In this document: one piece after another, positions 39,870 through 55,345 of the stretch
Layout: every line of letters starts with the position of its first letter
Position numbering within the stretch: the first letter of the stretch is position 1
IMG/VR virus record: IMGVR_UViG_3300019935_000001
Coordinates: 36,145 to 100,144 of that record
Reading direction: 5' to 3' (one strand)
DNA: 64,000 bases
DNA from: a virus
Taxonomy: Duplodnaviria; Heunggongvirae; Uroviricota; Caudoviricetes
Notes under the pieces: model-generated
Database searches by the model: none
Told to the model about the DNA's origin: nothing
The model's input: only the letters and a program-made list of their open reading frames with translations
Position numbers and translations under genes: made by a program

Positions 39870-39887
39870 CACACTGGAGACAAACAA

Positions 39888-40382: not shown

Positions 40383-40554
40383 ATTCCTGGTAATCTATCT
40401 GAAGCCCGGCATTGGTCAGCTGCAGAAGATTGTAGAGGCAACGAACTGGTACAGCGTTACCAACGAGGCCACTGAGCAATTGCAAATCACTGAATCGCAG
40501 ATATTGAGCATAGATGAAACGCCCCGGTCTATCCGGGAGTCGCAAGCATTTTGA
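40375..40554 (+). CDS. Hypothetical small protein (59 aa)
   Basis: ATGCGTAA start/stop overlap. Followed by a 9-bp-stem hairpin at 40561-40586. Confidence 0.3.
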   Translation: MRKFLVIYLKPGIGQLQKIVEATNWYSVTNEATEQLQITESQILSIDETPRSIRESQAF

Positions 40555-40596
40555 TCAGAGAAGGAGGGCGTTAAGCCCTCCTTTGAGGACAGACAG

Positions 40597-40851
40597 ATGG
40601 AACAGCACCTTTACCACGTTCAAATGACTCGTGATGTTACCGAATCCTGCACAGTGGCTGTGTGGGCCAGCAGCCCGGATCAGGCCGAAGACAAGGCGTA
40701 TATGGCAGCGACCGGTGCCGCCGATGATCGCACTGCACATGTCGGCCCCTGGAGCCTGAATGAAGGCAGTTGCGGGGCTGAAGCGCCATACATAGCTGAT
40801 TCGGGCGAGGACATTAAGCAGGTCAGCCGAGGCTCGTCCGTAGCCATGTGA
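40597..40851 (+). CDS. Hypothetical protein
   Basis: 84 aa. Confidence 0.4.
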   Translation: MEQHLYHVQMTRDVTESCTVAVWASSPDQAEDKAYMAATGAADDRTAHVGPWSLNEGSCGAEAPYIADSGEDIKQVSRGSSVAM

Positions 40852-40926
40852 TACTCACCTTAGTCAATTTGAGAGAATTACATTGTCAGAGCTGACTTAG
40901 CTTTTGCACACATACAGGAGCAAACT

Positions 40927-41247
40927 ATGACCACCTGCAATGTAACTTTCTCCACCGCCAGCGTGACGCTGGTTCTCAGCAATCGACCGTACAGCGGTCG
41001 TACCTCAATTATCGACATCAATGATCTCCTCGAAGCCATGTGCGAAGAGCAGGACGGGGCCAAGGCGACAGCCGGTGTCCTGGAGCGCATCACTATTGGC
41101 AACGACGGGGATCTCGTCCTCCACATGACATACGAGAGCCCAGAAGATCTGATGCTGGTCGATGTGGACGCGGACAAGATTCGGACGTTTTTAAATGAAG
41201 CCTGGGACGACGATGAAGAGTCATCTCTGGCTGCAGTGGGTTTGTGA
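40927..41247 (+). CDS. Hypothetical protein
   Basis: 106 aa. Leader CACACATACAGGAGCAAAC. A palindromic element copy lies at 40881-40901. Confidence 0.45.
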   Translation: MTTCNVTFSTASVTLVLSNRPYSGRTSIIDINDLLEAMCEEQDGAKATAGVLERITIGNDGDLVLHMTYESPEDLMLVDVDADKIRTFLNEAWDDDEESSLAAVGL

Positions 41248-41250
41248 ATT

Positions 41251-41766
41251 ATGAGCAGTAAAAAGAAGAAGCCACGCAATCGGAAGTACACACCTGGACG
41301 GCACATGATTCCGGGATTTCAGAAGGACATCGAGAAGTTCTGGGTTATGAGAACCTGGAACATGAATCAGCTGGCCTGGGGTGGCTTGAACCCGAACGTA
41401 TCGTATTACCAGATGCTGTGTGACCACCTGATTATCACACCGCAGTGCTGGACAGTCCTTGTTGCATCTCTGCAGAAGGATGAACACGGAAACACATGGA
41501 CCAACTTCGAGCAGTACAGCCTGAAAGAGCCGGTACTGCCCCGCCACATCCAAGATGCTCTGAGCGAGAAGCTGGAGAATCTGCACAAGGGTCGAAATGA
41601 GAAGCACCGGGTTGGTGCCGCTTGGTATGCAGTACCGAAGGCTGATGCTGATTTGCTGGCTGACTCGGTACGGATCGAAGAGAAGTTCCGGTCGGTGGGC
41701 GCTTTTGATCGCAAGCAGTCACCTGGCAAGCATGTGTCGAAGCCCTCAGTAGGGAAGGCGGCATGA
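41251..41766 (+). CDS. Hypothetical protein
   Basis: 171 aa. Confidence 0.45.
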   Translation: MSSKKKKPRNRKYTPGRHMIPGFQKDIEKFWVMRTWNMNQLAWGGLNPNVSYYQMLCDHLIITPQCWTVLVASLQKDEHGNTWTNFEQYSLKEPVLPRHIQDALSEKLENLHKGRNEKHRVGAAWYAVPKADADLLADSVRIEEKFRSVGAFDRKQSPGKHVSKPSVGKAA

Positions 41767-42023
41767 AGGGCTTTAAGCGTTACTTTTTCCAGCAGCGCAG
41801 AAACACCAGTGTGTGGAGAACGCTGCCCGTCATTGTCCGCAGCAGAGAAGATTTGGCGGCTTTGGTTCAGCACTGGTCTGTACTGGGCCAACGGGGCGGG
41901 TGGCAATACCGCGCGCTGATGACGTTGCCCGAGGACCTGACCCGCCAGGAGAACAAGAACCTGGAATTTATAGTCGAGGCCCGCGTTCATCGGGGTCATA
42001 TCGGATACAGCGAGGAGTCGTAA
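41763..42023 (+). CDS. Hypothetical protein
   Basis: 86 aa. ATGA coupling. Confidence 0.4.
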   Translation: MKGFKRYFFQQRRNTSVWRTLPVIVRSREDLAALVQHWSVLGQRGGWQYRALMTLPEDLTRQENKNLEFIVEARVHRGHIGYSEES

Positions 42024-42025
42024 CG

Positions 42026-42367
42026 ATGTTGTTTAGCCAGAAACAGGTGGCTGATTTCGTAGCAGAATGCACCGCCCTTCATACCCTGAATTGTCTTCCT
42101 GCCGATCCGGATGACACGCCTGACTTTGATGCTTTTGAGGTGCAGCTGGTCGTGTCTATGCAGGACGGCGACGGTGGCTTCTTCTGTGAGCCTGTGTCCG
42201 AACGGGAGGCTGCTGCCGAGATCTCCTCTGACCGGTTCGACGCTCTGATGTGGACGCTCTATGCCCACTGTCAGGACGGCGGCGTTGAGGCTCTGCACGA
42301 CTTTCACAGCAAAGCCGAAGCAGAGGAAATCTACAAGGCACTTCACGCCAAATTCGTGGCCGATTGA
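42026..42367 (+). CDS. Hypothetical protein
   Basis: 113 aa. Start at ATG 42026, not the long upstream ORF-track start at 41813. Confidence 0.4.
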   Translation: MLFSQKQVADFVAECTALHTLNCLPADPDDTPDFDAFEVQLVVSMQDGDGGFFCEPVSEREAAAEISSDRFDALMWTLYAHCQDGGVEALHDFHSKAEAEEIYKALHAKFVAD

Positions 42368-42443
42368 TAGCCACTTCTGATCTACCTGTTGCCGATTGAG
42401 AAAATACATTCATCGGCAACAACACACATAGAGACAGAGAATT

Positions 42444-42728
42444 ATGACCGCTAAGTTGATGACCCTTCCCCCGAAGGGTCGAACCATCTCTACACCGAAA
42501 GGTGGCTGGAAGAAGCAGACGTACTACGTGGTAAACGTGTCTGTGAATCGGAACAACCCGATCTTCCGGGCGATCTTCTACTCCGGATTCCTGGAGAAGG
42601 GCGGACTGCCCGGTGCCTACGCTGCAGCATGGGCGGGCGCTTGCGATGAAACACCGATCCATGAACTTCACTTCCTGGAAGTGGTTTCTGAGATCGACAT
42701 GGGTACTGACGTGGAGGATTCACTGTGA
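42444..42728 (+). CDS. Hypothetical protein
   Basis: 94 aa. Leader AACACACATAGAGACAGAG before ATGACC. Confidence 0.45.
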   Translation: MTAKLMTLPPKGRTISTPKGGWKKQTYYVVNVSVNRNNPIFRAIFYSGFLEKGGLPGAYAAAWAGACDETPIHELHFLEVVSEIDMGTDVEDSL

Positions 42729-43369
42729 GAAGTGTGAACCTGATTGTCAGAGAAGACCCTGCGACTGGTGCAACCGGCCTGATGTGCAAGGACGTTCGGG
42801 TTATCGATGCCCCGATGGTCGCTGTAACTGGCTCAACCATTGCTCACGACATCATTGAGCACCAGAACGGACTGAGAGCGATCGGCTCCATCGGTGACGA
42901 GCTGGAGGCGCTGGGTGGTCTGTGGTTCTGCCGGGGGCAACTATGTGATCTGGGCAACGGGTGGATGTCGAATACGCAGACCGTATCCGGCGATGTAGAC
43001 AACCTGTTCAGCCTGTATGCCAGCGGCGTTCCGGTTCGCTCCGAAGTTAAGCGCCTGCACCGTGCCCCGGACTACATCGAAGACGACATCGGCGAGATCC
43101 TGGCTCATGTGGGCGTCAGTGACTGTGAGCGGGATCAGTGGGGTGACTTCAAAGAGGCTGCTTTCCGGCTGATCAGCCGGGGCTACAACAAAGCTGTTCG
43201 CCGATTCAAAGATAACGCTATCGCCGCGCATAACCAGTTCTGCACGATTGAGATGGCAGTCAATGATCTACTGATCGGCGATCTGCACCTGGGCCAGGAG
43301 TTCACACTGGTGTACGGGGAAGGTCGAGCACGCACTTTCGGGGAGTACGAAGACAATGCCTGGTACTAA
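42725..43369 (+). CDS. Hypothetical protein
   Basis: 214 aa. GTGA coupling. Confidence 0.45.
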   Translation: MRSVNLIVREDPATGATGLMCKDVRVIDAPMVAVTGSTIAHDIIEHQNGLRAIGSIGDELEALGGLWFCRGQLCDLGNGWMSNTQTVSGDVDNLFSLYASGVPVRSEVKRLHRAPDYIEDDIGEILAHVGVSDCERDQWGDFKEAAFRLISRGYNKAVRRFKDNAIAAHNQFCTIEMAVNDLLIGDLHLGQEFTLVYGEGRARTFGEYEDNAWY

Positions 43370-43724
43370 TCGAAAACCTTGCAAGCGCCCGTGTGCTAAC
43401 TGCCCGTGGAAGAAGGACTCGGCTCGCGGCTATCTGGGAGGCAACAGTGTTGGTGTGTACGCAGACTCTATTCGATCTGACCGCCGCCTTGCCTGCCACA
43501 GCCGAGCCCCAGGGTCTGAGAGCCTGCCGTCCGAGCTTATCGCAGCGGCTGACGTATGCACGGGTTACGTTATGGCCCGAGTAAATGACTTCAAGAGTAG
43601 TGCCGATCCAGTGCTGCGCCAGCTTGAAGTGATGCACCGCGAAAGCAGTCACCGTGGTGAGATCTTCTCGTTTCCGGTTCATGAGGGTTTCGCGGGCCAC
43701 CACGGTTTGGAGATCGCAGTATGA
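43356..43724 (+). CDS. Hypothetical Cys-rich protein
   Basis: 122 aa. Confidence 0.4.
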   Translation: MPGTNRKPCKRPCANCPWKKDSARGYLGGNSVGVYADSIRSDRRLACHSRAPGSESLPSELIAAADVCTGYVMARVNDFKSSADPVLRQLEVMHRESSHRGEIFSFPVHEGFAGHHGLEIAV

Positions 43725-44032
43725 AGACACGTATCGAGAAGGTACTGAAGCGCGATGATGGCACCCGGGCAAAGATCGAAGTCTGGCTGTCTGCGGGCTA
43801 CCTGGAGAAGAGTGCGAAATACCATTACGAGGTCGAGTTTAAGCCACCACGCGCCCGAAACTGGCGACCGGTCTATGATCGCAGCGGCTACGACTATCGC
43901 AGGCTGTCGTATGAAGAGCGCCCGGCCTACATCCAAAAGATGAGCCTGGAGCATGTGACAGAAGAAGAGATCCACACCGCAATGCTGGAACTGTGGGAGC
44001 AACTGAAGCCGGGGGTACTCGACCATGATTAA
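43721..44032 (+). CDS. Hypothetical protein
   Basis: 103 aa. ATGA coupling. Confidence 0.4.
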   Translation: MKTRIEKVLKRDDGTRAKIEVWLSAGYLEKSAKYHYEVEFKPPRARNWRPVYDRSGYDYRRLSYEERPAYIQKMSLEHVTEEEIHTAMLELWEQLKPGVLDHD

Positions 44033-44210
44033 TCCGAACAAGTGGCCGACCCTTCCCACCACAAAACTCAAAGGCGGCGTTCGCCGTGGTGAGCTGGCAG
44101 TTACCTGCACTGGCATCGGCAAACCGAAGACCTGTACCAGCGGGCTGCTGAAGATCATCGAAAAGTCAGGTGCTGGCAGAAAGAAGGGGGTTGTTCGTTA
44201 TGAACCATGA
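44025..44210 (+). CDS. Hypothetical small protein
   Basis: 61 aa. ATGA coupling. Confidence 0.3.
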   Translation: MINPNKWPTLPTTKLKGGVRRGELAVTCTGIGKPKTCTSGLLKIIEKSGAGRKKGVVRYEP

Positions 44211-44637
44211 AGCAGGCATGAGCGGTGAAGAGCTGAAGGCAAAGTACGAAGAGCTGCAGCCGGGTGATCACTGGGCTGAGCACCCCGAGTTCTCGCTGGG
44301 GGCTTGGCGTGAGGAAGTCAGCGAAGAGAACACGCTGCAGGGATACTGGGACTGGGTGGCAGCGCAGGCTCATGAGGCCAACATGACCCGGATCGAGCAG
44401 CTGCTGGAGCAAGATGGCGACCGAATCGAAACGGTTTACTGCTCCAAGAAGCACCCGCATGGCTCTGCATATGTGGCCGTAACTGCTCAGGGCAGATGGC
44501 TTGTTGGTAGAGAACAGGCGTTGATTGATGTGTTCTATGGCTCTGCCCGTGTAGCGTATGACGCCTATTTCCGGAAGGCAGAGCAGGGCGATCACGGAGC
44601 CTGGAACATCTGCTATGTGCTGGAGGATCACTTGTGA
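44200..44637 (+). CDS. Hypothetical protein
   Basis: Start at ATG 44200 with an AAGGGGG RBS. Confidence 0.4.
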   Translation: MNHEAGMSGEELKAKYEELQPGDHWAEHPEFSLGAWREEVSEENTLQGYWDWVAAQAHEANMTRIEQLLEQDGDRIETVYCSKKHPHGSAYVAVTAQGRWLVGREQALIDVFYGSARVAYDAYFRKAEQGDHGAWNICYVLEDHL

Positions 44638-44763
44638 GTGCGGCGCTGGTGCCGACCTGACGAATGCCGAGGGGAGTCCCGAACCATCGCTTACTCCCCT
44701 TTTGAGTATTGCGACAATAGATCCCGTTGAAGCAACAACGCTATTACACACAGAGAGACGGAA

Positions 44764-45048
44764 ATGATGACCGACTTTACAGAGCTTTTTGAACGCGCAA
44801 AGACAGAGCAGACCCTGGAGATTATGGTTCGCGGCCGCTGCCGCAAAATGAAGGTGAGCTGCAATCTGTCAGATTACACTTACGCTACGCTGGCTAATTA
44901 CTATCGCGAAGACGCTTTCGCCTCTGTGCGCTGTATGCTCCAGGCCGCTGCAGATCGGCTGACCGAGATCCGTGAAGAGGCAAGCGCTGCTGCTCGCCGC
45001 GAAGCGCTTGCTAAAGATCTTGCGAAGCTGTCCGGGGCCAAATCATGA
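44764..45048 (+). CDS. Hypothetical protein
   Basis: 94 aa. Leader TTACACACAGAGAGACGGAA. Confidence 0.45.
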   Translation: MMTDFTELFERAKTEQTLEIMVRGRCRKMKVSCNLSDYTYATLANYYREDAFASVRCMLQAAADRLTEIREEASAAARREALAKDLAKLSGAKS

Positions 45049-45395
45049 AAGCAATTCTGATCGACCCGGAGGAGCGCACTGTTAGCGCTGTCGAACATGG
45101 TAACGAGCTGCGTGACTTCTATAGCTTGCTCGACTGTGAGCGAATCGAGTTCATAGATGTTGAACCTGGCATCTCTGTGATCGTTGATGGCGATGCGTTG
45201 CTCCGGGATGCGCCGCCGCCACCTTTTCTGTTCGACTATATGCGGGTACTCATTTTCGGCAAAGGCCTGATTGTCGGGATCTGCGGTAGCGATGTAGCAG
45301 AGTGCACGATGTCCATGTCAGATGCGTGGCTCAGGACATACTGGACAGATAGTGGCATCGCAGAGTGTGCCGCTGATTATCGGGGGCGGATCTGA
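45045..45395 (+). CDS. Hypothetical protein
   Basis: 116 aa. ATGA coupling. Confidence 0.4.
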   Translation: MKAILIDPEERTVSAVEHGNELRDFYSLLDCERIEFIDVEPGISVIVDGDALLRDAPPPPFLFDYMRVLIFGKGLIVGICGSDVAECTMSMSDAWLRTYWTDSGIAECAADYRGRI

Positions 45396-45580
45396 TGAAC
45401 CTGTTGTTTTCATATGGTGCTGACCGTGATAACGAGCTGAATGCGCAGGGTCATATTTTTCTGGGCGCAGGTGAAGACTCAAATGAAGGTGAGGTTCACG
45501 TGTTTCTAAAGGCCGGCGAAGAGCGACAGCTGCCGGGCGACAATATGGTCCTCAACCTGAGCGCCGAAGCCAATGACTGA
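45395..45580 (+). CDS. Hypothetical small protein
   Basis: 61 aa. TGATG coupling. Confidence 0.3.
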   Translation: MNLLFSYGADRDNELNAQGHIFLGAGEDSNEGEVHVFLKAGEERQLPGDNMVLNLSAEAND

Positions 45581-45830
45581 TGTGGTATGCGGTGTATTCA
45601 TTGAGTTCACAGAGAACGAGCACTCTGACAAGGAGCTGTCAGCTGGGCCTTTCTTTACCGGCACCCGAGCAGACTGCAGCAGCTGGCTGCACCGGAACTC
45701 TGAGCTGATGGAAAAACTGAAGGAAATGGCAATTGGCCTGACAGAGTACGGGTCAAACCAGAACTACAGCTGCGAAGATTTTGACATATTTATTGAGAAG
45801 GTAGATGAAAATGGAAAATGGCGTAGTTAA
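45573..45830 (+). CDS. Hypothetical protein
   Basis: 85 aa. Confidence 0.4.
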   Translation: MTDVVCGVFIEFTENEHSDKELSAGPFFTGTRADCSSWLHRNSELMEKLKEMAIGLTEYGSNQNYSCEDFDIFIEKVDENGKWRS

Positions 45831-46038
45831 TCGAGCGGGGCAGCCTTGGACAGGGCGAGAGGAGGAAGAGCTGCGTGATTTGTTCGATCAAGCTGAGAGC
45901 ATTACAAATATTGCTTCATGGCATAGACGCTCAATCGGAGCGATCACCAGCCGCCTTGCTCGTTTAAACCTGATTGAGCATAGTCGCCAGGGGTGGCTCC
46001 GCAAAGATACCAGCGAAGTCTATTATCGCTGGTTCTGA
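45805..46038 (+). CDS. Hypothetical protein
   Basis: 77 aa. Last gene of the small-gene operon. Confidence 0.35.
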   Translation: MKMENGVVNRAGQPWTGREEEELRDLFDQAESITNIASWHRRSIGAITSRLARLNLIEHSRQGWLRKDTSEVYYRWF

Positions 46039-46055
46039 CCCCGACAACCAATCCC

Positions 46056-46090
46056 CCCCCTAAAAGCCTGCATCATGCAGGCTTTTCTGT
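46056..46090. terminator. Bidirectional terminator hairpin (AAAAGCCTGCATCATGCAGGCTTTT) preceded by a C8 tract
   Basis: Perfect 9-bp stem flanked by A-runs and T-runs on both sides. Ends the 38826-46038 operon. Confidence 0.7.
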
Positions 46091-46480
46091 TGCTTTCTGA
46101 TACTGAGAGCAGACCTGTTGAATATGCTGCGCCATGAACGATGTAGAAAATGCCCTTTTTGACTCAGAAGTGTCCCCGGCCAGCCCCAAACTTATCATTG
46201 CTGATAGTTGGCCCTTGATATACCCCCGGAATACCCCCAGCGAGTGAAGAGTCATCGCTCGTATTTGCTCAGAAGAAGCGCCAGCTATAACCAGGTCAGC
46301 TTCAGCCTGCTGAATGTCTTCCGTTATCTGGTGAGTATCCAGATCCAGACCTGCATATGTCTTACCTCCTCTTTTTTTCATATTTGAGGAGAAGAGACAA
46401 GCGGTTGGAGTGTATAGCCGCTTCAGATGCTCCTGGTACGCCGCATGAAGCGTTGGATAGTACTCCACTGTTGAAGTCAC
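46073..46480 (-). CDS. Hypothetical protein
   Basis: 135-aa ORF with protein-like composition. No convincing RBS. The stop lies inside the terminator loop. Confidence 0.3.
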   Translation of the reverse strand: MTSTVEYYPTLHAAYQEHLKRLYTPTACLFSSNMKKRGGKTYAGLDLDTHQITEDIQQAEADLVIAGASSEQIRAMTLHSLGVFRGYIKGQLSAMISLGLAGDTSESKRAFSTSFMAQHIQQVCSQYQKATEKPA

Positions 46481-46853
46481 TTCATTAGCGTGGCTAGAGC
46501 CAGTGTCGCCATAGACTTTTTAAGCATCTGTATTGTCCCTTTGATTCAACGCAGGCCGTATAGTAATTGAATCAACGATCACTTACAAAGACAGTCAGAC
46601 CAGCATCTCTGCACTACATCGACAGACTCATCTGAAAGCATCGCTGTATCGTCCGCAGAACAGCGCACAGCAAGCGCACACAGAAGATACGAGCAATCAC
46701 ACTGCTCGGCTATTCGGGCGCTCAGAACGCAATACAGAAAGCCGATCCATTCCGCTACCAAAAGCACTGCAGGATACCCAGCTGCCAGCTCTGATCAGCC
46801 TGATCCCGCTTGAGAAAATACAAGCGTCACAACGACACACAAGGAGACAAATT

Positions 46854-47174
46854 ATGACCACCTTGAGAATCCCGGTTGAAGCTGCCCGGAAGTTGCTGAT
46901 GCACTGTGAAAAGATCGGATCGGATCAGCTCGCATTTCATGCGTCAGCAACAGACGGGGCATTCTTCAGCACGGAGCACGATAGTAACCCGCTGTATCAT
47001 GTGCCGGGCTACGAACCCGGCAGCAAGCATTGGCAGCAAGAGATAGAGGCAACGTTCGGTATCGAGCCTGTTTCTATCAATGTGCCACTGCAGCTGCTGC
47101 AGCGCCAGCTCGACAACCATGACACCGGCGTGTTCTCTGTGAGGATAGATCGGGAGAACTCAATCATCACCTAA
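46854..47174 (+). CDS. Hypothetical protein
   Basis: 106 aa. Leader GACACACAAGGAGACAAATT before ATGACC. Confidence 0.45.
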   Translation: MTTLRIPVEAARKLLMHCEKIGSDQLAFHASATDGAFFSTEHDSNPLYHVPGYEPGSKHWQQEIEATFGIEPVSINVPLQLLQRQLDNHDTGVFSVRIDRENSIIT

Positions 47175-47429
47175 CCTATAAGCAGCGCGATCTGCACCGG
47201 TTGTAAATGACCTGATTTTGTAGACCGCGCTGCAACCGAGCACTAACCCGGATACACCCGAAACCGGTACCAGGCTATCACTCCCGTATAACCCCCATAC
47301 AACCAAATTTAACCTGATCACCGAGAGATCCTCCCCCGCTGTCCATTCAAGGAAAACTCTGACCCCCAGATCAATCAGACACCACATGATTTTTCACGCT
47401 ACCAATTAAACCAAAATGCCTACCGACAC

Positions 47430-47760
47430 GAGCATTACCCCTCTATAGGGAACCTTCATGCCCGCTATGGGAATTTACGTGGTCAAATGAGCCAAATTGT
47501 TTACCAGCACCATCAACACCAATTCCGCTCAAACCCTCATAAACGCTGACACTCCGGCCATTTCTCTCACCACCAACCATACATAGAGCACCATAGAGCC
47601 CCTATAGACACATACCATAGAGAAACACACGCCTATAGAGGCAACTATACCCATAGGGACACATACACACGCTCGCACAGGACATACGAACATAGAGGCT
47701 CACGCTCGTATAGAGGAGACATAGACCGGTATGGAGACACGCAGGGTACATGTAAGAAAA
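47430..47760. repeat. Degenerate tandem array (about 12 copies) of C-ATAGAG / C-TATAGG motifs interspersed with ACACAC, in a 1.1-kb non-coding island
   Basis: ctctatagggaa, gctatgggaa, catagagca, ccatagagcc, cctatagaca, ccatagagaaacacac, cctatagaggc, cccatagggacacatacacac, catagaggc, gtatagaggagac, atagacc, tatggagacac. The units resemble the conserved leader ACACACATAGAGAC. Confidence 0.6.
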
Positions 47761-48068
47761 AGCGTTGGAGCCGGATCGCCAGCTTGCCTCTGTCAACCTT
47801 CAAAATATTTTGCTTATGGATAAGCCAGAGGTTCTTGAGTGGTTGACCATGGCCTGCATGCTGACAGGGTGTCCTGTTTACAGAAGGTTCCCCAGCAGAG
47901 CCAGTGTTTGAATCAAGGCTCATGGCTGCCATGTCGGTATCTGTGAGGTTATCCATGGCCAGACCAATCACCGGCGGCTTCCCTACAGGATATGACCCAT
48001 AGAGAGGATCAGGTGACCTGTGTATGGCTGGCAGCCCCTTATCGGTTATGTCCATAGTATTTTGCTCA

Positions 48069-48086
48069 TATAAGTCAGAGCGCTGG
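48069..48086. promoter_or_regulatory. Palindromic-family promoter/operator half element (ATATAAGTCAGAGCGCTG)
   Basis: TAAGTCAG half-site, 200 nt upstream of the 48286 gene. More ATAGAG/ATAGTA units lie nearby. Confidence 0.35.
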
Positions 48087-48285
48087 GTAGGTTTACCAGA
48101 GGCTTGCCCATGGTTGACCTGCTCCAATTGAGCCTATGGGTCACATCCGGATCAGCTTCAGGACGCCATGATTTCGACTGGGGTAGCTGAGCAAAGCCTG
48201 ACGATGCCATGAGCCATCGCTTAGTAGACCAGCAACTCATCTGTACTATTACTGCATTAGTTAAGCACGGACAAGGACCGTAAGT

Positions 48286-48576
48286 ATGAAACAAGAAGCG
48301 ATGATTGAACTGATGACTGTGGCTGTGGCGCAAGAGCTGATGGAAGCTGCAGAGGGATTACTGGTGGAGTATGCAGAGGGTAAGGACGTTCTGCACTCTA
48401 GCCCGCGCAGTAAGATCCGTCGCCTATCGCGTGCATCCATGTTTGTAGATGCACTGCCGGGTATGGATGGGGCTGCAGTCGGACACATGATCAATGAGCT
48501 GGACGATCTGGGAGTGATCGACCGCATGGAGGGCTGTTCAAAGGAACGTGTCGCTGAAGGACTCGTGCTTAGCTAA
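48286..48576 (+). CDS. Hypothetical protein
   Basis: 96 aa. Confidence 0.4.
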   Translation: MKQEAMIELMTVAVAQELMEAAEGLLVEYAEGKDVLHSSPRSKIRRLSRASMFVDALPGMDGAAVGHMINELDDLGVIDRMEGCSKERVAEGLVLS

Positions 48577-48925
48577 ACCAAATTCTCAGTGTGTGTGAAT
48601 ACTTTTGCCCGGCCATGTGTCGGGCTTTTTAGTTTCACTGCATCATTGTTCTTATAGGCTCCTGCTGCTTTCGTGAACCTCGCGAGCCTGCATCAACGCT
48701 GACTTCTGCACTGGAGACGTCATCCTCTGGTGTATGAACTACACCTAATACTCGAAATACTTCCTTGCCTAATGCAACCCCCTCTTGTGGCAGAGGGACA
48801 CGGGTCAACTCAACTAGCTGGCCGGAGTTATCTGGGAATGCGAGACGTATCTTTACCATCAGTGTAATGCCTGTTTCAGAGTGACATAATGCGAACAGTG
48901 TAACGTGACATGAGAGGAGTAGTAC

Positions 48926-49213
48926 ATGAGTCACAGCAATCATCCGCTGTACCCAAAGATGAAGGGCCTTGTTTATCACCGTCTTGAAGCCATTACGGCC
49001 AAGACAACACCTGACTGTATAGCAGCGGGGCACAAGGACATCTGGGACTGGGTAATGAAGGACACCGACAGCATCGCCTTCGCCATGCTGATTCGGGAGA
49101 TCCCTGGCATTCTGTCTGAGAAGCAGAGCCAGATCCTCCTGGACGGGCTGGCAGAGGAATACGCCGGGGTAGAGAACTGGGTGGCGTTCGTTGACCAGGA
49201 GTGTCAGGACTAA
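48926..49213 (+). CDS. Hypothetical protein
   Basis: 95 aa. RBS GAGAGGAG. Confidence 0.4.
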   Translation: MSHSNHPLYPKMKGLVYHRLEAITAKTTPDCIAAGHKDIWDWVMKDTDSIAFAMLIREIPGILSEKQSQILLDGLAEEYAGVENWVAFVDQECQD

Positions 49214-49220
49214 CCAGGGA

Positions 49221-49240
49221 GCCGCAGGGATGCGGTTTTG
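49221..49240 (+). terminator. Rho-independent terminator
   Basis: CCGCA-GGGA-TGCGG hairpin followed by TTTTG. Confidence 0.55.
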
Positions 49241-49502
49241 CCTTCAAATCGGGTAGGTTTACCTTGGCAACACCTCCCAAGACCCTCGCTTCACTGCAGG
49301 CAAAGACAGTCTTCCTAAACGTGGCTACGTGCACGTATGAGGTCGTCACAGGATTACCTGCATCATTTGCTGTCTGACAGATCAAGTCCCGTCATATGGC
49401 CCCCTATGTGGCTTCTGAGAGGTCTTCCAGCCGCCAGATCTGATTCGCTATAGCAGTGTTGATAAAATGTAAGCTCAAACTTACAAACACATAGAAACTG
49501 CT

Positions 49503-49745
49503 ATGAACATGACCAGCATCGACCCTCGCTCTGAGGTGGCAAGATCAACCACGAATCTGGTGGCCCGGATTGACCTGTTGGATCAGGTCAGCTTCGATAC
49601 CGACGATTTCGAGACATCCAAGCTCCTGTCAGAGGGCGATAGTCCTGACCACCTGCTGTACGACCATTTCCCCTATCTGTATCGAAGCCAGGGCCATTTG
49701 GAAGATCCGGAGCGTATAGGGCGCTTGGTGAGTGTGGTCACTTGA
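49503..49745 (+). CDS. Hypothetical protein
   Basis: 80 aa. Preceded by a palindromic-family element (49467-49487) and leader ACAAACACATAGAAAC. Confidence 0.4.
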   Translation: MNMTSIDPRSEVARSTTNLVARIDLLDQVSFDTDDFETSKLLSEGDSPDHLLYDHFPYLYRSQGHLEDPERIGRLVSVVT

Positions 49746-50200
49746 TGGAGCAGGGTGCAGGGATGCACCTGGTAAGGCCAGACAGGGTAGGTGAACCAGA
49801 GGAGTGAGGCAGGTCAACCTTCGGCAATTAGGGCAGCCACAGGTTCGCCAGGATTTGCCATGGCAACATTTTTTTTATAAGGCTCGCCAAACCAGGAATG
49901 GTTCGAGGTCTAAAACGGGAAAGGTGCGAAACAGAGGTGCACCTGCGGGCGTCCCGTGATCGGGCGCGGGCGTGCGGGGGCATCGCGTGTCTGCATCGGG
50001 GCGTGTGATCCGTACCCGTCTGCGATCAGGCGTGCGGCGCGTTTGTGTGTGGGGTCGGTGTCTGCTGTATCGTTTCGTGTTCTCCGTGTTGCCGTTGACT
50101 TAGGAGCTATTCTACAGCATTCGGTTTTCAGCGCAACACTTTTTTAATAAAAATTTGTTGCGCCGCTTTTTAGCAACAGGGGCTTGGCCCCCTTGCCCTT
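49746..50200. other. GC-rich structured non-coding island (twin GGTGCA/TGCACC hairpins, TTGCCATGGCAA palindrome, GGGCGTG-type direct repeats, GCGCAACAC...GTGTTGCGC hairpin)
   Basis: No convincing ORF. Hairpins at 49757-49776 and 49922-49944 share the same stem. About four units of (G/C)ATCGGGCGTG lie between 49950 and 50040. An 8-bp-stem hairpin with a 17-nt AT loop lies at 50133-50164. Candidate ncRNA, second origin or regulatory array. Confidence 0.4.
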
Positions 50201-50328
50201 TAGAGAACGTTCCAGTCAAATGCGAACGTTTCGTAATTATGTACCTCTTCGCTGATGCGGTGCCAGTAAACGAAGTGATCCCAGAGCGTCGCTACCTGCG
50301 CCTCTCGCATCCCGGTTGCTTCCGCAAT

Positions 50329-50490
50329 CTACTCTGTCGTTTCCAGCGGCCCCCAGATCAGTGCCCGGTGCGCTGCTTTAATTCGCTCCTCTTTGATCCC
50401 GGTGCGCTCCGCGATCATAACCGCGTAACGATCAACAACTGTATCTGAAGCGTAAAGGAAGTGGCGAACGCCTTTTTTCAGAGTGGTCAT
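50329..50490 (-). CDS. Small protein (53 aa), possible HTH regulator
   Basis: Not in the ORF track. Minus-strand ATG preceded by a perfect conserved leader (ACACAACACACATATAGAGACAGAAT-ATGACC). Translation MTTLKKGVRHFLYASDTVVDRYAVMIAERTGIKEERIKAAHRALIWGPLETTE. Confidence 0.4.
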   Translation of the reverse strand: MTTLKKGVRHFLYASDTVVDRYAVMIAERTGIKEERIKAAHRALIWGPLETTE

Positions 50491-50730
50491 ATTCTGTCTC
50501 TATATGTGTGTTGTGTCCGGGCACCGTGCCCCGACTGCATGTGCATATTAATAAGCTCTGACTTACTTTGCAACTCTTTTTAGATAAATAAAAAACAAAA
50601 AAATATTAAAAAAGTGTTGCGTTAAAAAATGGATTCGGTACTATACATCACATCGGCGACACGGGGAGCACATAGCCCGGCCCGATGTCAAACGTGACCA
50701 AAAAACTGAATCAGACAGAGAGTAGAAATT

Positions 50731-51354
50731 ATGACTACTAAAGCAGCAGCTCCAAAACAGACTATCGCTCAGAAACTGGAAGCACTGAATACGGCACTGG
50801 AACGCGAAATGCAGTTGCAGAAAGCACGACAGGAAACAGCAGCAGAGAAGCTGGAAAGCGTTCAAGACCCGGAAAGCGTGAAGGAACAAAGCTCAATTAT
50901 CAGCAACGCTAATCAGCGCATTAAGCGAGTGAGCAAAGTTCAAAAAGGCAGCGATGAATTTAAAAAGACTCTGCTGAAGCACTTCCAGAATATTACAGAC
51001 CTGGTTGCACCCTCTGACATCTACGCATGGGATACCGCTTTGCTGTACATCAAAGCCGCCGAAAACAAAGCAGACATTAAAGATTGCCTGTGTGACTTTT
51101 TTGTTCCATTCAAGCGTAGCCTGACTATCACCGGATCAGAGATTAAAGACCATCTGGCACGCCCTAGCAGCAGCGTTAAGGGATCTGCAAGCCGATGGAC
51201 CAGTGCACCGGCTTGGGCACTGGAAAAGCTCGGAGCGGCTACCATAGAGCGTAACACGCGAGGCACTGTAGCGGCGGTGACTCTGAACCCACGTAGCAAG
51301 CTGATTAAAGCGCTTGTGGAGGGCGCATACATCGGCAATCTGGCCGAAGCGTAA
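50731..51354 (+). CDS. Hypothetical protein
   Basis: 207 aa. Divergent from the small minus-strand gene. The shared AT-rich region carries a palindromic-family element (50547-50569) and a GTGTTGCG motif. Confidence 0.5.
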   Translation: MTTKAAAPKQTIAQKLEALNTALEREMQLQKARQETAAEKLESVQDPESVKEQSSIISNANQRIKRVSKVQKGSDEFKKTLLKHFQNITDLVAPSDIYAWDTALLYIKAAENKADIKDCLCDFFVPFKRSLTITGSEIKDHLARPSSSVKGSASRWTSAPAWALEKLGAATIERNTRGTVAAVTLNPRSKLIKALVEGAYIGNLAEA

Positions 51355-51439
51355 CACCGGACAAACAGCGCTCTTTCGGGGGCGCTTCTCTGATTACAGT
51401 TCAAGCCCCGGATCATCTGTCAATAGTTTAGATTTTGAA

Positions 51440-51790
51440 CAATATTTGTGACCCTGATGGCGCCATTATGCCAGGGGTTTGGGGGACACCCTTATACTAA
51501 GGATTCGACCTGTGGGGACAGTGAAACGTTGGGAGCCTGCACCAGGTAAGGCTTTGGGGATCTGGGACAGTTGGGTCGTTGGGAGGTTTGGATTGTGAGA
51601 GGTTGGGGGACGCTGGAAGAAGGAAATCCAACAGGAACATTGGAAATCCCCCTTCCTTATATATGCCGTCTTACACTTTGCCCCGTGGGAGCAGCCCCTG
51701 GAGCCCAAGCGGGACTCGGCTTCGCCTCGCCGCTGGCATATTGGGAGCCTGAAGGTCTTCGCTGGAATCGACCACTCGATCTTTGAACAG
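51440..51790. repeat. G-rich repeat island (TTGGGGA / TTGGGAG / GGGGACA units about 10 times; GGAAATCC twice) with no convincing ORF
   Basis: ggggtttgggggacaccc, tgtggggacag, gttgggagc, ctttggggatctgggacagttgggtcgttgggaggtttggattg, ggttgggggacgc, ggaaatccaacaggaacattggaaatccccc. Confidence 0.45.
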
Positions 51791-51830
51791 TGAGGCCGCG
51801 ATCTGCTGAATCTGAGCCGTGCTCAGGCTG

Positions 51831-52076
51831 TCAATCGCCAGCTTTGGCATTGTTCTTTCTTCCCTGGACAATCAGGCCACCGAGCCCCAGTACCGCTGTT
51901 GCTCCCCACAGCAACTTGATGTGAAACCACGCATCCTTGACCTCGCCGAGTGTGAAGGGCTGGGGTGTGCCGTATAGCTCTGCACTGATGAACTCTTTGA
52001 CTGTGGGGTATTCCGCCATCATGAAGCCCGCGACTGTGGCCGTGAGGGATGCACCGACGTACAACAAAACGTGCAT
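51831..52076 (-). CDS. Small membrane protein (two TM helices)
   Basis: 81 aa. Upstream on the minus strand: palindromic element ATATAAGTCAGAACTGACTTATAG (52097-52120), then leader CAACAGGAGACGGTAAAAC before the ATG. Confidence 0.45.
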   Translation of the reverse strand: MHVLLYVGASLTATVAGFMMAEYPTVKEFISAELYGTPQPFTLGEVKDAWFHIKLLWGATAVLGLGGLIVQGRKNNAKAGD

Positions 52077-52168
52077 GTTTTACCGTCTCCTGTTGAATAT
52101 AAGTCAGAACTGACTTATAGTAGGCTTGTTCCGTTCGGAACGTTCAAAACTGTACTACTCTGTCTGTA

Positions 52169-52197
52169 GCCACCTGAATAAGGTGGCCCATTTTTTC
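52169..52197 (+). terminator. Rho-independent terminator
   Basis: GCCACCT-GAATA-AGGTGGC hairpin followed by CCATTTTTTC. Confidence 0.65.
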
Positions 52198-52235
52198 TGC
52201 TTTTGTGCCGTCTCAGTTGCCTGAGAAAGGCGTGA

Positions 52236-52829
52236 TCAGGGCGACTCGCCTTTCTCACCAATCAAAGGGTGCACATGTCGATAGTATGATGACCTGCTGA
52301 TCTCAAATTCACTGCACACATTGGCAATGGACTCGTCCGGGTTAGCAGAAACATACGCCGCAATTGCGCGACGTCGCTCCTTTGATAGAACTTTGGGGCG
52401 CCCACCCACGCGTCCCCTTGCTCTCGCAGATTCCAGACCAGCTTTGGTTCTTTCCTTCAATCGACTCACTTCAAGCTCTGCGAGCGCAGCGAACATATGG
52501 AAGATGAACTGGCCTGTTGGTGTGGTGGTATCGAACTTTTCCGTGGTCGATACAAAGTGAAGCTCTCTTCGTTTAAGCTCCATGGTTGTAGACACAAGAT
52601 CAATGAGCGAACGCCCCAACCGATCCAGTTTCCAAACGACGATGGCGTCCCCGGGTCTTGCAAACTCCAGCATTTCATCAAAGACCTGTCGTGACCAGGT
52701 AGAGCTGGTGCCCGTCACCTTCTCTACGAATACTTTCTCAACGCCTTCTCGCTCGAAGGCATCCAGCTGCAAAAGCAACTTCTGGTCGTCAGAAGATACC
52801 CTTCCGTACCCGAGCTTCACACGCCGCAC
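52236..52829 (-). CDS. Small serine recombinase (resolvase / DNA invertase family)
   Basis: 197 aa. Catalytic-Ser motif YGRVSSDDQ. Resolvase-type N-terminal catalytic domain with a short C-terminal HTH. Confidence 0.85.
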   Translation of the reverse strand: MRRVKLGYGRVSSDDQKLLLQLDAFEREGVEKVFVEKVTGTSSTWSRQVFDEMLEFARPGDAIVVWKLDRLGRSLIDLVSTTMELKRRELHFVSTTEKFDTTTPTGQFIFHMFAALAELEVSRLKERTKAGLESARARGRVGGRPKVLSKERRRAIAAYVSANPDESIANVCSEFEISRSSYYRHVHPLIGEKGESP

Positions 52830-53362
52830 CTTTTGAAGATCATCATTTGGGCCAGTTCTTCATTGGTGTATCGGCTCAGTAGCAGGTCCGTTGCGGCCGT
52901 TGTTGTTTGGGCAGTGCCTGTCTCTATCATTTTGAGGCTCAAATCGTGAAATAAAATGGTTGTCTCGGGATGCCAGGTAAAGGATCGCAGAGCTTTGGTG
53001 ATGCCGCTCCTCATCTCGATCAATGCAAAAGACATTACCAGGCGTTCACCCGGTTCTGGCTCTTCGATGCTTCTATCGCTGTCTGGTATCCGCTTCGGGT
53101 CGAATGGGCAACAGAACCATACCGAGCGTCCCTTTCTGTCCCGAAACTGAAACATGATGATCATAGCGCCGCCCCGAATCAACAGTCCGATGTCTACCGG
53201 GCTTTCGCGAAATGTACGAATCTCTGCTGGTGTCAGATCAGGAAGTCCTGCAACAAACAGGTTGTTTCCGTGATCCAGGAGGTGCAGCTGGGAGAACTCT
53301 GGCAATGGCGGGATGATGCCGGGCCACTTCTTACCCAGCTCTATCTTGGTGTAGTCGTCCAT
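52817..53362 (-). CDS. Hypothetical protein co-transcribed upstream of the serine recombinase
   Basis: 181 aa. Overlaps the recombinase start by 13 nt. Leader ACAGACAGAGACAGAGAAAACACC before the ATG. Confidence 0.5.
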   Translation of the reverse strand: MDDYTKIELGKKWPGIIPPLPEFSQLHLLDHGNNLFVAGLPDLTPAEIRTFRESPVDIGLLIRGGAMIIMFQFRDRKGRSVWFCCPFDPKRIPDSDRSIEEPEPGERLVMSFALIEMRSGITKALRSFTWHPETTILFHDLSLKMIETGTAQTTTAATDLLLSRYTNEELAQMMIFKRCGV

Positions 53363-53592
53363 GGTGTTTTCTCTGTCTCTGTCTGTACTACAGCCTGATT
53401 AGTCTCAGGCTTGACTGTGCACTGTCTCAAAAACGGTAACAGCACCACTCAATTGAAACATAGTTTTTGAGACGGGAAAAGAAACAGGTTTCAGCTACCT
53501 ATCCATGTATTTCGACTGCCTACTTAATTTGTTTCAAAAACGATCGTTTTTGAGACACGCTTGGCGGCAAATTCATACAGGGAGCGGAAGGG
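53363..53592. promoter_or_regulatory. Divergent control region with three copies of an inverted motif TGTCTCAAAAAC / GTTTTTGAGAC
   Basis: Copies at about 53417-53430 and 53461-53474, with a composite TGTTTCAAAAACGATCGTTTTTGAGACACG at 53531-53560. Sits between the recombinase operon and the DGQHR operon. Candidate operators or res-like recombinase sites. Confidence 0.5.
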
Positions 53593-55095
53593 ATGTTGTA
53601 CCGGATTATTGTCGCCAAGGGTGCTAACTATGGCCGGGTGCTGGGAGCCCACGTTTCAGATTCCGCTGCAGGTCGTGCCCTGGGCAAAAACAAGCAGGAG
53701 TTTGGAACAGGCTCGGTACTACTAATCGAAACAGACGAGCGACTGGTGCAGGGTGTGTGTTACCCGGATGTTGCCGATCAGGGTATTGCCGATCATCACC
53801 ATAAGTCAGGTATGCGCCTGATGGAACTGGTCATTAAAAACCGGGCCACCGGTGAAGTGCCGGATTGGGTGATTGCCAGCATCATAGATGAAGGCTGGAC
53901 GATGGATTCGCTGAGCCAAGAGTTTGGGCCGCTGGTTCACCAGAAAATGGAGCAGGAGCGCCGCGAGCACCAGAAGCGGGCAGAGCGCTCTGCAATGATT
54001 CACGCAGGTCGCCTCTGGATGAAGAAAGAGATCGATGACCACGTTATCGAGCTGCCAGCCATTACAGGAACCCAAGCTCGCCGCCAATTCTTCACCGTTC
54101 AGATGACTCTGCAGCAGGTTGACCGGCTTTTGACTGCAGATCACAACGATCTGGCCCCTGAAGATCGCAGCCAGCGCAAACTGAACCCGGCACGGGGCAA
54201 AAAGCTGGGCGGGTACATTGTTGGGAACCACGACAGCTACGTTCTGCCGGCCATCACCGTCTGTATCGATCCGGATATGACCTTTGACCCGATTGAAGGG
54301 TTCGGCGGGGCAGTTGGCACCCTGAAAATACCGGTAACGTCTCTGGTCTATATCATTGACGGCCAGCACCGGCGTGAAGGTATCCGGTGGGCCTTGTCCG
54401 CTCAGTCGCTCCGCTGGCAGATGCAGAAGGAGACGATTGCGGTCACCATTTACTACGATGAAGGGCCTGAACGGCGTCAGCAGATGTTCTGTGACATCAA
54501 CTATCCAGCTGTCCGGGTGTCATCCTCTTTGAACATGCTCTACGACCGCCGAAACTCACTGAACCACTGGATTCTCGATATTTTGGCTAAAAATCAGTCA
54601 ATTTGGGGTCGAATTGAGCTGGATAGCGCGAGCGTAGGTGCCCAAAGTTCCAAATTGTGGGCCGTAGTCGCCATGAAGAAGGCTCTCCTCACGGTTTTGG
54701 GGTTGTCAGAAGTGCAATTTTTCACCAAAACCGATGAAAATCGGGCCGAAATGGAAAAGGTGGTCGATAGGTTCTTCGACACTCTGGCAGAATATCTGCC
54801 GCGCTGGGGCATGGTGATAGACCCGGATTGCTCCGCTCCGGACATCAGGAGCGACTATATTGTTGGCCACGCTGTTTTCCTGCAGGCGCTAGCTATCGTT
54901 GCCCGCAAAGCCCAGGAAGAAGAGGGCGGCTGGCAGAAGCTGTCCGGGCTGGCCAAGCTCGACGTAGCGCGAGATTCAGAAGTGTGGGAAGGTAAATGTG
55001 TCGTCAATGGAAGGATGAACCGGTCGGCAGCCGGGGCCAACGCCACTGCGGCAGAAATTTGTAGCCAGATTGGCATAGAAATGGACTGGAGTTGA
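53593..55095 (+). CDS. DGQHR-domain protein (DndB/DpdB-like ParB-Srx fold) with about 150-aa N-terminal extension
   Basis: 500 aa. Signature VYIIDGQHRREGIRWAL followed by FCDINYPAVRVSSSLNMLYD, matching the DGQHR family blocks (iDGQHR ... F.d.N.....s.sl..l.d). Confidence 0.7.
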   Translation: MLYRIIVAKGANYGRVLGAHVSDSAAGRALGKNKQEFGTGSVLLIETDERLVQGVCYPDVADQGIADHHHKSGMRLMELVIKNRATGEVPDWVIASIIDEGWTMDSLSQEFGPLVHQKMEQERREHQKRAERSAMIHAGRLWMKKEIDDHVIELPAITGTQARRQFFTVQMTLQQVDRLLTADHNDLAPEDRSQRKLNPARGKKLGGYIVGNHDSYVLPAITVCIDPDMTFDPIEGFGGAVGTLKIPVTSLVYIIDGQHRREGIRWALSAQSLRWQMQKETIAVTIYYDEGPERRQQMFCDINYPAVRVSSSLNMLYDRRNSLNHWILDILAKNQSIWGRIELDSASVGAQSSKLWAVVAMKKALLTVLGLSEVQFFTKTDENRAEMEKVVDRFFDTLAEYLPRWGMVIDPDCSAPDIRSDYIVGHAVFLQALAIVARKAQEEEGGWQKLSGLAKLDVARDSEVWEGKCVVNGRMNRSAAGANATAAEICSQIGIEMDWS

Positions 55096-55098
55096 GAT

Positions 55099-55344: not shown

Positions 55345-55345
55345 A

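Follow-up and report, generated by a model that had tools for sequence, protein, structure and literature searches.

A gene-free island in a metagenomic phage-plasmid

The 64,000 nt of DNA analysed here (the window, from whose first nucleotide all positions are counted) come from a metagenomic phage-plasmid of around 103 kb that is related to Nickievirus and to SSU5; its DnaE-type polymerase shares 47% protein identity with the enzyme of Pseudomonas phage nickie and 36% with the enzyme of Salmonella phage SSU5. Gene order in the window matches that of nickie over 5-38.5 kb and, after a break, over 61-64 kb. Between these two blocks, among small ORFan genes on the plus strand, lies an island at 47175-48285, bounded by the stop codon of the open reading frame (ORF) at 46854-47174 (gene A) and the start of that at 48286-48576 (gene B). 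The island is non-coding, contains a real cluster of short units of the type YATAGRG that resemble the leaders of the phage's own genes, and has an architecture conserved in other lineages; it is probably a functional non-coding element. The sequence recurs in several assemblies, one of them an ENA contig of 102,745 bp, and the island is 100% identical in all copies. The ORFs within and beside it are as follows.

46854-47174, plus strand: gene A, 106 aa, an ORFan directly upstream of the island, codon score +0.17
47645-48127, minus strand: ORF of 160 aa, or of 136 aa from the ATG at 48054, codon score -0.19, judged not to be a gene
47731-47823, plus strand: 30-codon ORF starting in the last unit of the array (GAGGAGA, 12 nt, ATG), not conserved in relatives
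48286-48576, plus strand: gene B, 96 aa, an ORFan directly downstream of the island, codon score +0.30

Scored by codon usage, the island has negative log-odds in each of its six frames, as against values of +0.17 to +0.37 for the neighbouring small genes. The 30-codon ORF is probably not a gene, and none of the island's ORFs has a counterpart in the island of any relative. A preliminary description of this DNA, made from its sequence alone, had taken 47175-48285 to be free of genes and had named a conserved protein-coding gene at the equivalent place in related genomes as something that would refute its view; no such gene was found, the relatives keeping this place free of genes as well. The island has no credible gene. 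The genes to either side have no family matches. Gene A matched only itself among 5.8 billion proteins, and gene B shows no similarity to the gene that follows the island of nickie.

The one ORF that might make the island a coding region is that of 160 aa on the minus strand. Its stop-free stretch of 162 codons exceeds 97% of composition-matched shuffles (P 0.03), it was called on the JGI contig, and its codon score rises to +0.05 in one 150 nt window. Against this, the overall codon score is negative, no Shine-Dalgarno sequence precedes the ORF, it is not called on the Logan contig, no similar ORF occurs in any relative's island, and the C-terminal third of its product is simply the reverse complement of the array. 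It has no match in Pfam or PHROG, and in a full HMMER scan against 1.8 billion representative proteins the sole matches were the ORF itself and three proteins made of repeats, over which their scores had been summed; matches to proteins of 1,362 aa and 245 aa were dismissed as spurious, their scores being sums over identical repeats. As the length of the ORF is marginal when compared with shuffles, a minus strand gene is kept as an alternative, although a very unlikely one. The preliminary description had considered this ORF to be driven by the repeats and the island to be non-coding, and its array-derived C terminus, its codon score and its want of a real homologue agree with that view.

An irregular array of leader-like units

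The plus strand units are distributed over the left half of the island, which extends from 47175 to about 47790.

47440-47474, plus strand: outlying units, comprising the palindrome CCTCTATAGGG at 47440 and CTATGGGAA at 47465
47580-47740, plus strand: core array of eleven direct (C)YATAGRG units interleaved with ACAC or ACATAC
47583, 47593, 47604, 47617, 47635, 47646 (weak), 47653, 47692, 47710, 47721 and 47731, plus strand: starts of the ATAG or ATGG of the individual units, as read from the sequence

Eleven units with a YATAGRG core thus lie on the same strand at 47582-47737, at successive spacings of 10, 11, 13, 18, 11, 7, 39, 18, 11 and 10 nt. Exact matches to YATAGRG number eight within 170 nt, where 0.088 would be expected (Poisson P 8e-14, or about 3e-11 when corrected for the number of windows), and the 64 kb contain no second cluster of this kind; over the window as a whole, ATAGAG occurs 45 times, as against 23 +/- 4.9 in shuffled sequence. 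Several of the units hold the palindromic core CTATAG. Tandem Repeats Finder (TRF) reports just 2.6 copies of a 10 nt unit (score 38), and helical phasing is weak, with Rayleigh p values of 0.02-0.05 at periods of 10.5-10.7 nt that are uncorrected for the number of periods tried. The array is an irregular cluster and not a true tandem repeat. When its degenerate pattern was searched for in IMG/VR, 105 stretches were found, which are unrelated and mostly regular tandem repeats; tblastn revealed no kinship with them.

About twelve copies of the motif at intervals of 9-20 bp had been reported in the preliminary description. The cluster itself is real, with its eleven units and two outliers, but the intervals are wider (7-39 nt), and the term tandem array overstated its regularity given the TRF result and the weak phasing. 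The sequence that had been quoted as the end of the array, TATAGAGGAGACATAGACCGGTATGGAGACAC, is present at 47709-47740. The further copies reported at 48000-48070 come down to one good copy, CCCATAGAGAGG at 47996; beyond it, CCTATGGG occurs as an inverted copy at 48133 and CCATAGTA, a weak one, at 48053.

The units owe their interest to the way in which genes begin in this part of the genome. Some eleven small genes start with an optional hairpin, the leader ACACACATAGAGAC, a spacer of three to eight nucleotides and ATGACC, threonine being the second codon.

31553, 36760 (minus strand), 37730, 38804, 39870, 40905, 42422, 44746, 46835, 49485 and 50509 (minus strand): leader cassettes, each a small hairpin, ACACACATAGAGAC, 3-8 nt and ATG ACC
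46806-46853, plus strand: cassette before gene A, with hairpin CGCTTG..CAAGCG and leader ACACACAAGGAGAC

Two copies of the cassette, at 42392-42449 and 46806-46859, are 79% identical over 58 nt. These initiation cassettes recall the promoter early stem-loops (PeSL) and mobile regulatory cassettes of the hyperplastic regions of T4-type phages. Since other genes carry GGAGAC at the corresponding position, ATAGAGAC is a weakened Shine-Dalgarno sequence behind a CA tract.

That the units mimic this leader had been proposed from inspection, and two measures now substantiate it. A position weight matrix (PWM) built from the eleven leaders finds 12 matches of at least 6 bits in the 186 nt array, where 0.35 would be expected. 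For a measure less tied to the special leader, 5-mer log-odds were derived from the stretches between -22 and -3 of 53 start codons, and the sequence was scanned with them in 150 nt windows. The array (47576-47725, plus strand) is the most leader-like 150 nt stretch of the 64 kb, ranking first of 2,554 with a z score of 5.8; its minus strand is unremarkable, and composition-matched shuffles of the array never attain the observed score. It still ranked first when the model was drawn only from 16 conserved genes without the special leader. The same model places the island first in nickie, SSU5, Rhizobium phage RHEph10 and Stenotrophomonas phage BUCTxx99 and second in hairong, and a model made from nickie's own leaders puts the nickie array first of 4,483. 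The array nevertheless contains no ATG, GTG or TTG over the roughly 155 nt before 47731, where by our own estimate about 3.2 would be expected. The left half thus resembles ribosome-binding leaders more closely than any other sequence of these genomes, but offers no place for initiation.

The left half is also set apart by its composition and by its place between terminators.

46062-46086, plus strand: intrinsic terminator, an 11 bp stem followed by a T-run, closing the preceding plus strand unit
47182-47233, plus strand: stem-loop immediately after the stop codon of gene A, without a U-run, -25.2 kcal/mol, z -5.6 (inverted repeat I3)
47200-47575, plus strand: untranslated tract rich in C and A and poor in G, of a composition like that of Rho utilisation (rut) sites
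48607-48625, plus strand: strong intrinsic terminator, a 7 bp stem with six GC pairs followed by TTTTT, closing the unit of gene A, island and gene B

The left half is A+C-rich and G/U-poor, and its A+C fraction of 0.66 is the highest in the 64 kb. GC skew is between -0.35 and -0.57 over 47200-47650. The roughly 400 nt that directly follow the stop codon of gene A (47175-47575; C 0.34, G 0.15) have the composition of a rut site, in which an untranslated stretch of at least 80 nt has far more C than G. Gene A, the island and gene B are bracketed by the two plus strand terminators, with none between, and there are no sigma-70-like promoters at the island, where 3.9 would be expected. Over 36000-55000, such promoters number 5, as against 13.7 +/- 3.8 in shuffles, and terminator-like sites 25, as against 15.6. 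The minimum free energy fold predicted for the array RNA (47570-47770) is mostly unpaired (z -1.48), with the units outside hairpin loops, and they would therefore be accessible. No Rfam family matches at the gathering threshold; with the cut-off relaxed to E 5, 46000-49000 gave two chance-level matches, both outside the island, and a tRNA scan of the island region found nothing.

Resemblance of the units to promoters of the T7/SP6 class, or a pac-like region, had also been put forward for the island. In favour of the former, TATAGGGA and CACACATAGAGAC resemble what we take to be the initiation region of SP6, K11 and T7 promoters, which would make the array a cluster of such promoters or of weak start sites. 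However, no gene for a single-subunit RNA polymerase was found among the Pfam-annotated genes between -0.7 and 68 kb of the window, on an element of around 103 kb, or among the 164 features of nickie. It is only the 7 nt core that recurs, the flanks differing between units and forming no 23 nt promoter (-17 to +6), and the best look-alike, at 47436-47455, aligns to the T3 promoter only with a gap of 2 nt. A pac site is unlikely because the terminase gene is about 19 kb away. Promoters of this class, weak start sites and a pac site together therefore make up the least probable account of the island that we considered, and we give it almost no weight.

The right half and the islands of related phages and plasmids

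The right half of the island, from about 47790 to 48285, is of a different nature, and its over-represented sites had gone undescribed.

47792-47850: long imperfect hairpin or inverted repeat, GTCAACC...GGTTGAC, where the two halves meet, containing CAAAATATTTTG and GCTTATGGATAAGC; on the plus strand -23.9 kcal/mol, z -2.7
47840-48215: site array, with CCATG(G) at 47847, 47921, 47929, 47953, 48108, 48166 and 48207 and GGTTGAC/GTCAACC three times
47988-48148: 15 nt inverted repeat (I2), GGATATGACCCATAG and CTATGGGTCACATCC, flanking 131 nt, with the motif at the inner end of each arm

These are short palindromic or iteron-like sites, CCATGG and GGTTGACC, lying ahead of the next gene. CATGG occurs ten times where 1.1 would be expected (p 3e-7) and GGTTGAC three times where 0.07 would be, making this the top cluster in the window. 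The arms of I2 are 93% complementary, and by our own estimate about 0.03 such pairs would arise by chance. There is also a degenerate duplication of around 65 nt, between 47801-47854 and 48053-48119 (repeats D4, D6, D9 and I14), and the minus strand of 47760-48285 folds with a z score of -3.1. Two copies of TTATCCAT, DnaA-box-like with one or two mismatches, lie 130 nt apart at 47816-47823 (minus strand) and 47948-47955 (plus strand); they are not significant as DnaA boxes. The balanced composition, the palindromes in both orientations and the lineage-specific sites just before the promoter of the next gene point to recognition of this half as DNA.

Unannotated islands of 0.5-2 kb were found in the same syntenic zone in five relative lineages, that zone consisting of small plus strand genes between the replication and nucleotide block and a UvsW-like helicase gene. 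Islands are present in five Nickieviruses, SSU5, RHEph10 and BUCTxx99, and share a two-part build: a half that is A+C-rich on the sense strand, with (C)ATAGAG or RGAG units, and a half with short palindromic or iteron-like sites before the next gene. A search of the literature found no description of them; the 'iterons' described for pABTJ2 are those of the plasmid oriV next to rep.

In nickie the island is an unannotated gap of 1.09 kb (100393-101484), and four other Nickieviruses have it too. The Nickievirus islands have 71-73% DNA identity to one another, even though blastn does not align the flanking genes, and the alignment contains 1 nt indels, which rule out coding. They begin with a variable array of ATAGAGA, GGAGAG and ACAC units and continue with about 470 nt that are strongly conserved and contain hairpins with compensatory changes. 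The left half ends in a hairpin with a U-run, whose place in the alignment is constant although its stem is built from three different sequences (-18.5 to -21.7 kcal/mol); by its predicted structure this is a conserved plus strand intrinsic terminator. There follow, in the right half of nickie, eleven RRCCRYGGY sites in 350 nt, of 60 in 112 kb, and, directly after this CCRYGG array, a sigma-70-like promoter and the next gene. A partial copy of the right half, with five CCRYGG sites and the box GAAATTCCCTATAKGSSCCGATATAGRGACAGGC, lies 2.2 kb downstream in nickie (NC_042091.1, 103369-103546). The Nickievirus loci have no match in Rfam, and the structured, terminator-ended segment of about 470 nt is in its own right a candidate for a new phage non-coding RNA.

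The islands of the other lineages vary upon this theme. That of BUCTxx99 (688 nt) is A+C-rich in one half, which contains CACCATAGAGAGCAA; RCCACGGCA sites come after it, and the following gene is preceded by a TATAAT box. The left edge of this island (around position 19276 of the record) carries a perfect parS palindrome of host type, TGTTCCACGTGGAACA, accompanied by two half-sites; an identity of the islands as parS or centromere sites was rejected, parS being found in no other lineage. In RHEph10 the island (510 nt) has four to five copies of ATGTTGACAG, followed by an A+C-rich part with CTATAGAGCAG and CCTAGAGAGC units. The A+C content of the SSU5 island is the highest of the 43 kb of SSU5 examined, and homologues of the SSU5-family island occur in 443 PLSDB plasmids; under the match there was no annotated feature in any of the 12 plasmids listed, and the four examined have a gene-free gap of 1.6-2.0 kb. 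The alignment of this family runs from GTTGAC/GTCAAC sites through an A+C-rich body with three units of about 30 nt ending in ACACGGAGAAGAACA to an invariant CCGTATAGA and then five RGGGAAAMGGCTGG sites, and the core best kept in distant Escherichia coli plasmids is the segment that bears AGAG. When the islands of four lineages were screened without bias for shared 6-mers, TAGAGA came first, with CTATAG, CCCATA and GTTGAC also among the enriched ones; RGAG/AGAG is enriched over composition in four lineages, and GGA is not.

The Nickievirus island does not align with that of the window. Megablast and blastn searches with it against phages and plasmids found nothing, and blastn against the Nickievirus island gave no match up to E 1; in view of this, the link rests on position, architecture and motifs. 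Nor are close relatives to hand, as searches with the flanking proteins and with a DUF3846 protein returned this same phage alone, and a conserved neighbouring protein of 260 aa has no relative in IMG/VR or in genome contigs.

These comparisons bear on whether the array need have any function. The island could be no more than an operon boundary, consisting of a Rho-dependent terminator zone and the promoter of the next unit, in which case the ATAGAG units would be debris left by slippage or recombination of the hairpin-plus-leader cassettes. The C-rich, G-poor tract (34% and 15%) of some 400 nt right after a stop codon would suit such a zone, as would the intrinsic terminator of the Nickieviruses at the equivalent place, the promoter after their CCRYGG array and the TATAAT box of BUCTxx99, and the repeated cassettes before about eleven small genes of the hypervariable region would be a source for the debris. 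A terminator and a promoter require far less than 1.1 kb, however, and the approximately 470 nt of the Nickievirus left half are better conserved than the adjoining genes. TAGAGA-type units are present in lineages whose DnaE identity is no higher than 36-47%, a span over which debris would not persist, and the SSU5-family segment best kept in distant E. coli plasmids is one that carries AGAG. We regard an operon boundary without any function for the array as doubtful. Rho-dependent terminators do resemble the left half, both being long stretches of untranslated RNA that follow a stop codon directly and hold far more C than G; they differ in that a rut site takes up about 80-100 nt and needs no repeated RGAG units, whereas here around 400 nt are followed by the array and conserved as a module.

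The right half suggests another possibility, that the island is a lytic (vegetative) origin: a region of nucleoprotein assembly with several repeat families, activated or primed by a sense transcript ending at the site array. It is a conserved gene-free region of around 1 kb with several families of direct and inverted repeats, and the right-half arrays are lineage-specific, as iterons co-evolving with their initiator would be (CCATGG and GGTTGACC here, RRCCRYGGY in nickie, RCCACGGCA in BUCTxx99, RGGGAAAMGGCTGG in the SSU5 family and ATGTTGACAG in RHEph10). Members that have plasmid rep/par modules and members that lack them alike retain the island, and that of BUCTxx99 carries the perfect parS. 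Replication proteins of T4 type are present, namely a gp32-like single-stranded DNA-binding protein (SSB), a RecA/UvsX-like protein, an SbcCD-like nuclease and a helicase annotated as UvsW, and since the plasmid origin appears to lie elsewhere, with the RepA iterons inside repA, a separate lytic origin is to be expected. An origin would also account for the right half and for the linkage of both halves. Yet there is no AT-rich unwinding element, GC content being 0.45-0.53 in every 150 nt window of the island (genome about 0.52), no DnaA box (TTWTNCACA) in any of the islands and no switch of GC skew at this one; the ATAGAG units are of 7 nt, irregularly spaced and weakly phased; and the strand-asymmetric composition, leader-likeness and absent start codons of the left half would go unexplained. 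A lytic origin, which would resemble the R-loop origins of T4 or the ori/crr of P4, fits the right half better than it does the ATAGAG array, and is in our estimation unlikely, but is the chief rival to the reading that we prefer.

Iteron origins such as lambda ori, P1 oriR/incA and P4 ori/crr do resemble the island as gene-free clusters of short direct and inverted repeats that are lineage-specific, and they can have two clusters, as nickie does at 101.0-101.4 kb and 103.4-103.55 kb. They differ from it in that the island has no AT-rich element, DnaA boxes or adjacent initiator gene, its units being irregular and of 7 nt and its flanking genes ORFans, and the iterons of this replicon's RepA have another sequence and lie inside repA. 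An incA-like titration of RepA by the island was ruled out on the same ground, the RepA iterons (pairs of ATAGTCGCGG, at about 0.2-1.3 kb of the window) being different in sequence.

A candidate leader-mimic RNA and its genomic setting

Taking the units' likeness to the leader as the guide, a sponge for a leader-recognising factor, which the preliminary description had suggested, is the best single reading of the array. In its fuller form the proposal, which we put forward tentatively, is of a transcribed RNA array of ribosome-binding-leader mimics that would work as decoy or loading platform and is joined to an array of DNA sites. The bias of the units to one strand, the conserved asymmetric composition, the leader-likeness without start codons and the conserved terminator and hairpins of the Nickieviruses all point to selection on the sense RNA.

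On this proposal the island would be this phage-plasmid's copy of a conserved two-part non-coding module of Nickievirus-type and SSU5-type phages and phage-plasmids. Its left half would be transcribed from the plus strand as an untranslated and largely unstructured RNA, within the unit bracketed by the terminators at 46086 and 48625, and would display at least 11 degenerate copies of the leader, each a CA tract with a weakened Shine-Dalgarno sequence (AUAGAGAC replacing GGAGAC) and no start codon. Such an RNA could act as a multivalent mimic that binds whatever reads leaders, be it 30S subunits, S1, a translational repressor or an RNase directed at the Shine-Dalgarno sequence, of phage or host origin. 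It might titrate that factor away from early mRNAs; alternatively, by coating the long untranslated RNA the factor might determine what share of transcription gets beyond the C-rich, Rho-prone tract. The right half would act as DNA, its palindromic sites (CCATGG, GGTTGACC and the inverted repeats) being bound by a protein that controls the next unit.

Several points weigh against a leader-mimic RNA. Sense transcription of the array, in this phage and throughout the group, the identity of the bound factor and the mechanism as decoy or platform are what we infer, and the left half has no promoter that we could find in this phage. As copies of the leader the units are weak: they score 6-12 bits with the PWM, where real leaders score 17-21 bits. 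With a model built from SSU5's own leaders, the SSU5 island ranks only 68th of 1,726, and a hidden Markov model of the Nickievirus island, run against the window with nhmmer, gave a best match at 47690-47767 that is not significant (E = 5). The CTATAG cores and the inverted pairs in the right halves fit recognition of double-stranded DNA equally well, and a decoy leaves the constant joining of the left half to the right-half sites unexplained.

In its logic the proposed RNA is closest to sponge RNAs of the CsrB/RsmZ type. Like these and those of the CrcZ type, the island presents in multiple copies a short motif that copies a binding site in mRNA leaders, at or near the Shine-Dalgarno sequence. 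It differs from CsrB/RsmZ in its motif, which is YAUAGRG/RGAG and not GGA, in having its units outside hairpin loops, in matching no Rfam family and in lying inside a phage operon. A sponge for CsrA/RsmA itself was rejected, GGA occurring eight times in the left half where 5.5 would be expected (P 0.17), being depleted in nickie and absent in RHEph10. Another parallel is with the early genes of T4, where, as in the hypervariable region here, small early genes share a hairpin and a conserved leader. In T4 the Shine-Dalgarno motif GGAG of early leaders is the target of the phage RNase RegB, and the leaders are the target of the repressor RegA. No homologue of RegA or RegB was identified here, and we know of no multicopy array of leader mimics described for T4. 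An array of a type III toxin-antitoxin system, like ToxI, was also considered and rejected, there being no regular repeats of 34-36 nt (TRF 2.6 x 10 nt) and no match of the neighbouring genes to a toxN-type family. The island lacks most of the features that define iteron origins, T7-class promoters and ToxI arrays.

A bolder form of the proposal is that the islands represent an unannotated class of phage non-coding RNA, an array of ribosome binding site mimics without start codons that, as a decoy, would set the translation or stability of early phage (or host) mRNAs and be coupled to lineage-specific DNA sites; this we hold to be speculative and rather unlikely. Equally doubtful is the range such a class would have, spanning Nickievirus, Rhizobium and Stenotrophomonas phages and the SSU5-type phage-plasmids (at least 443 enterobacterial plasmids). 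SSU5-type phage-plasmids are frequently found in clinical Escherichia, Klebsiella, Enterobacter and Salmonella, and a conserved non-coding module of 1-2 kb would offer a new handle on their lytic programme, whether as a leader-mimic RNA or as the missing lytic origin. If the decoy were true, the CsrB-type logic of mimicking mRNA leaders would extend, with a different motif, to the control of phage early genes, and culturable members such as SSU5 and nickie make the idea directly testable.

The remainder of the window is that of a phage-plasmid with separate plasmid and phage modules. At its left end, at 0.2-3.8 kb, are a repA-like gene with an HTH_36 domain (175-1305, minus strand), parB and parA. 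Inside the repA-like coding sequence, at around 700-860, are four tandem pairs of ATAGTCGCGGATAGTCGCG, the RepA iterons, an arrangement suggestive of a lambda-O-type plasmid origin internal to the gene. A 22 bp palindrome, TTTTGTCGTACCGGTACGACAAA, is present in four copies between repA and parB (about 1400-1603) and probably serves the ParAB system as parS or as operator; ATGGCAAA boxes are repeated ahead of parA. The window also encodes CobT/CobS-like genes and a set of replication and nucleotide genes, comprising the gp32-type SSB, a 5'-3' exonuclease, the RecA-like (RecA/UvsX-like) and SbcC-like (SbcCD-like nuclease) proteins and a ribonucleotide reductase.

Farther along are a resolvase, a DndB-like protein, PemK/MazE and the helicase that is annotated as UvsW-like in one relative. 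The accessory cluster at 52236-58270, with the resolvase, the DndB-like protein, an SMC/AAA_15-type ATPase, the PemK/MazE toxin-antitoxin pair and endonuclease I, is probably cargo for defence and stability. An IS256-family transposase (Transposase_mut, E 1.5e-100) is encoded on the minus strand at 17105-18313, in a patch of low GC content (0.40 at 18000-19000), and the 102.7 kb ENA contig terminates within it, at approximately 17194 of the window. Lastly, a second gene-poor gap of about 0.8 kb (46039-46853) directly precedes gene A; in its right part the plus strand is rich in A and C, and the gap holds a minus strand ORF (46073-46480) that is reported by some gene callers and has a codon score near zero.

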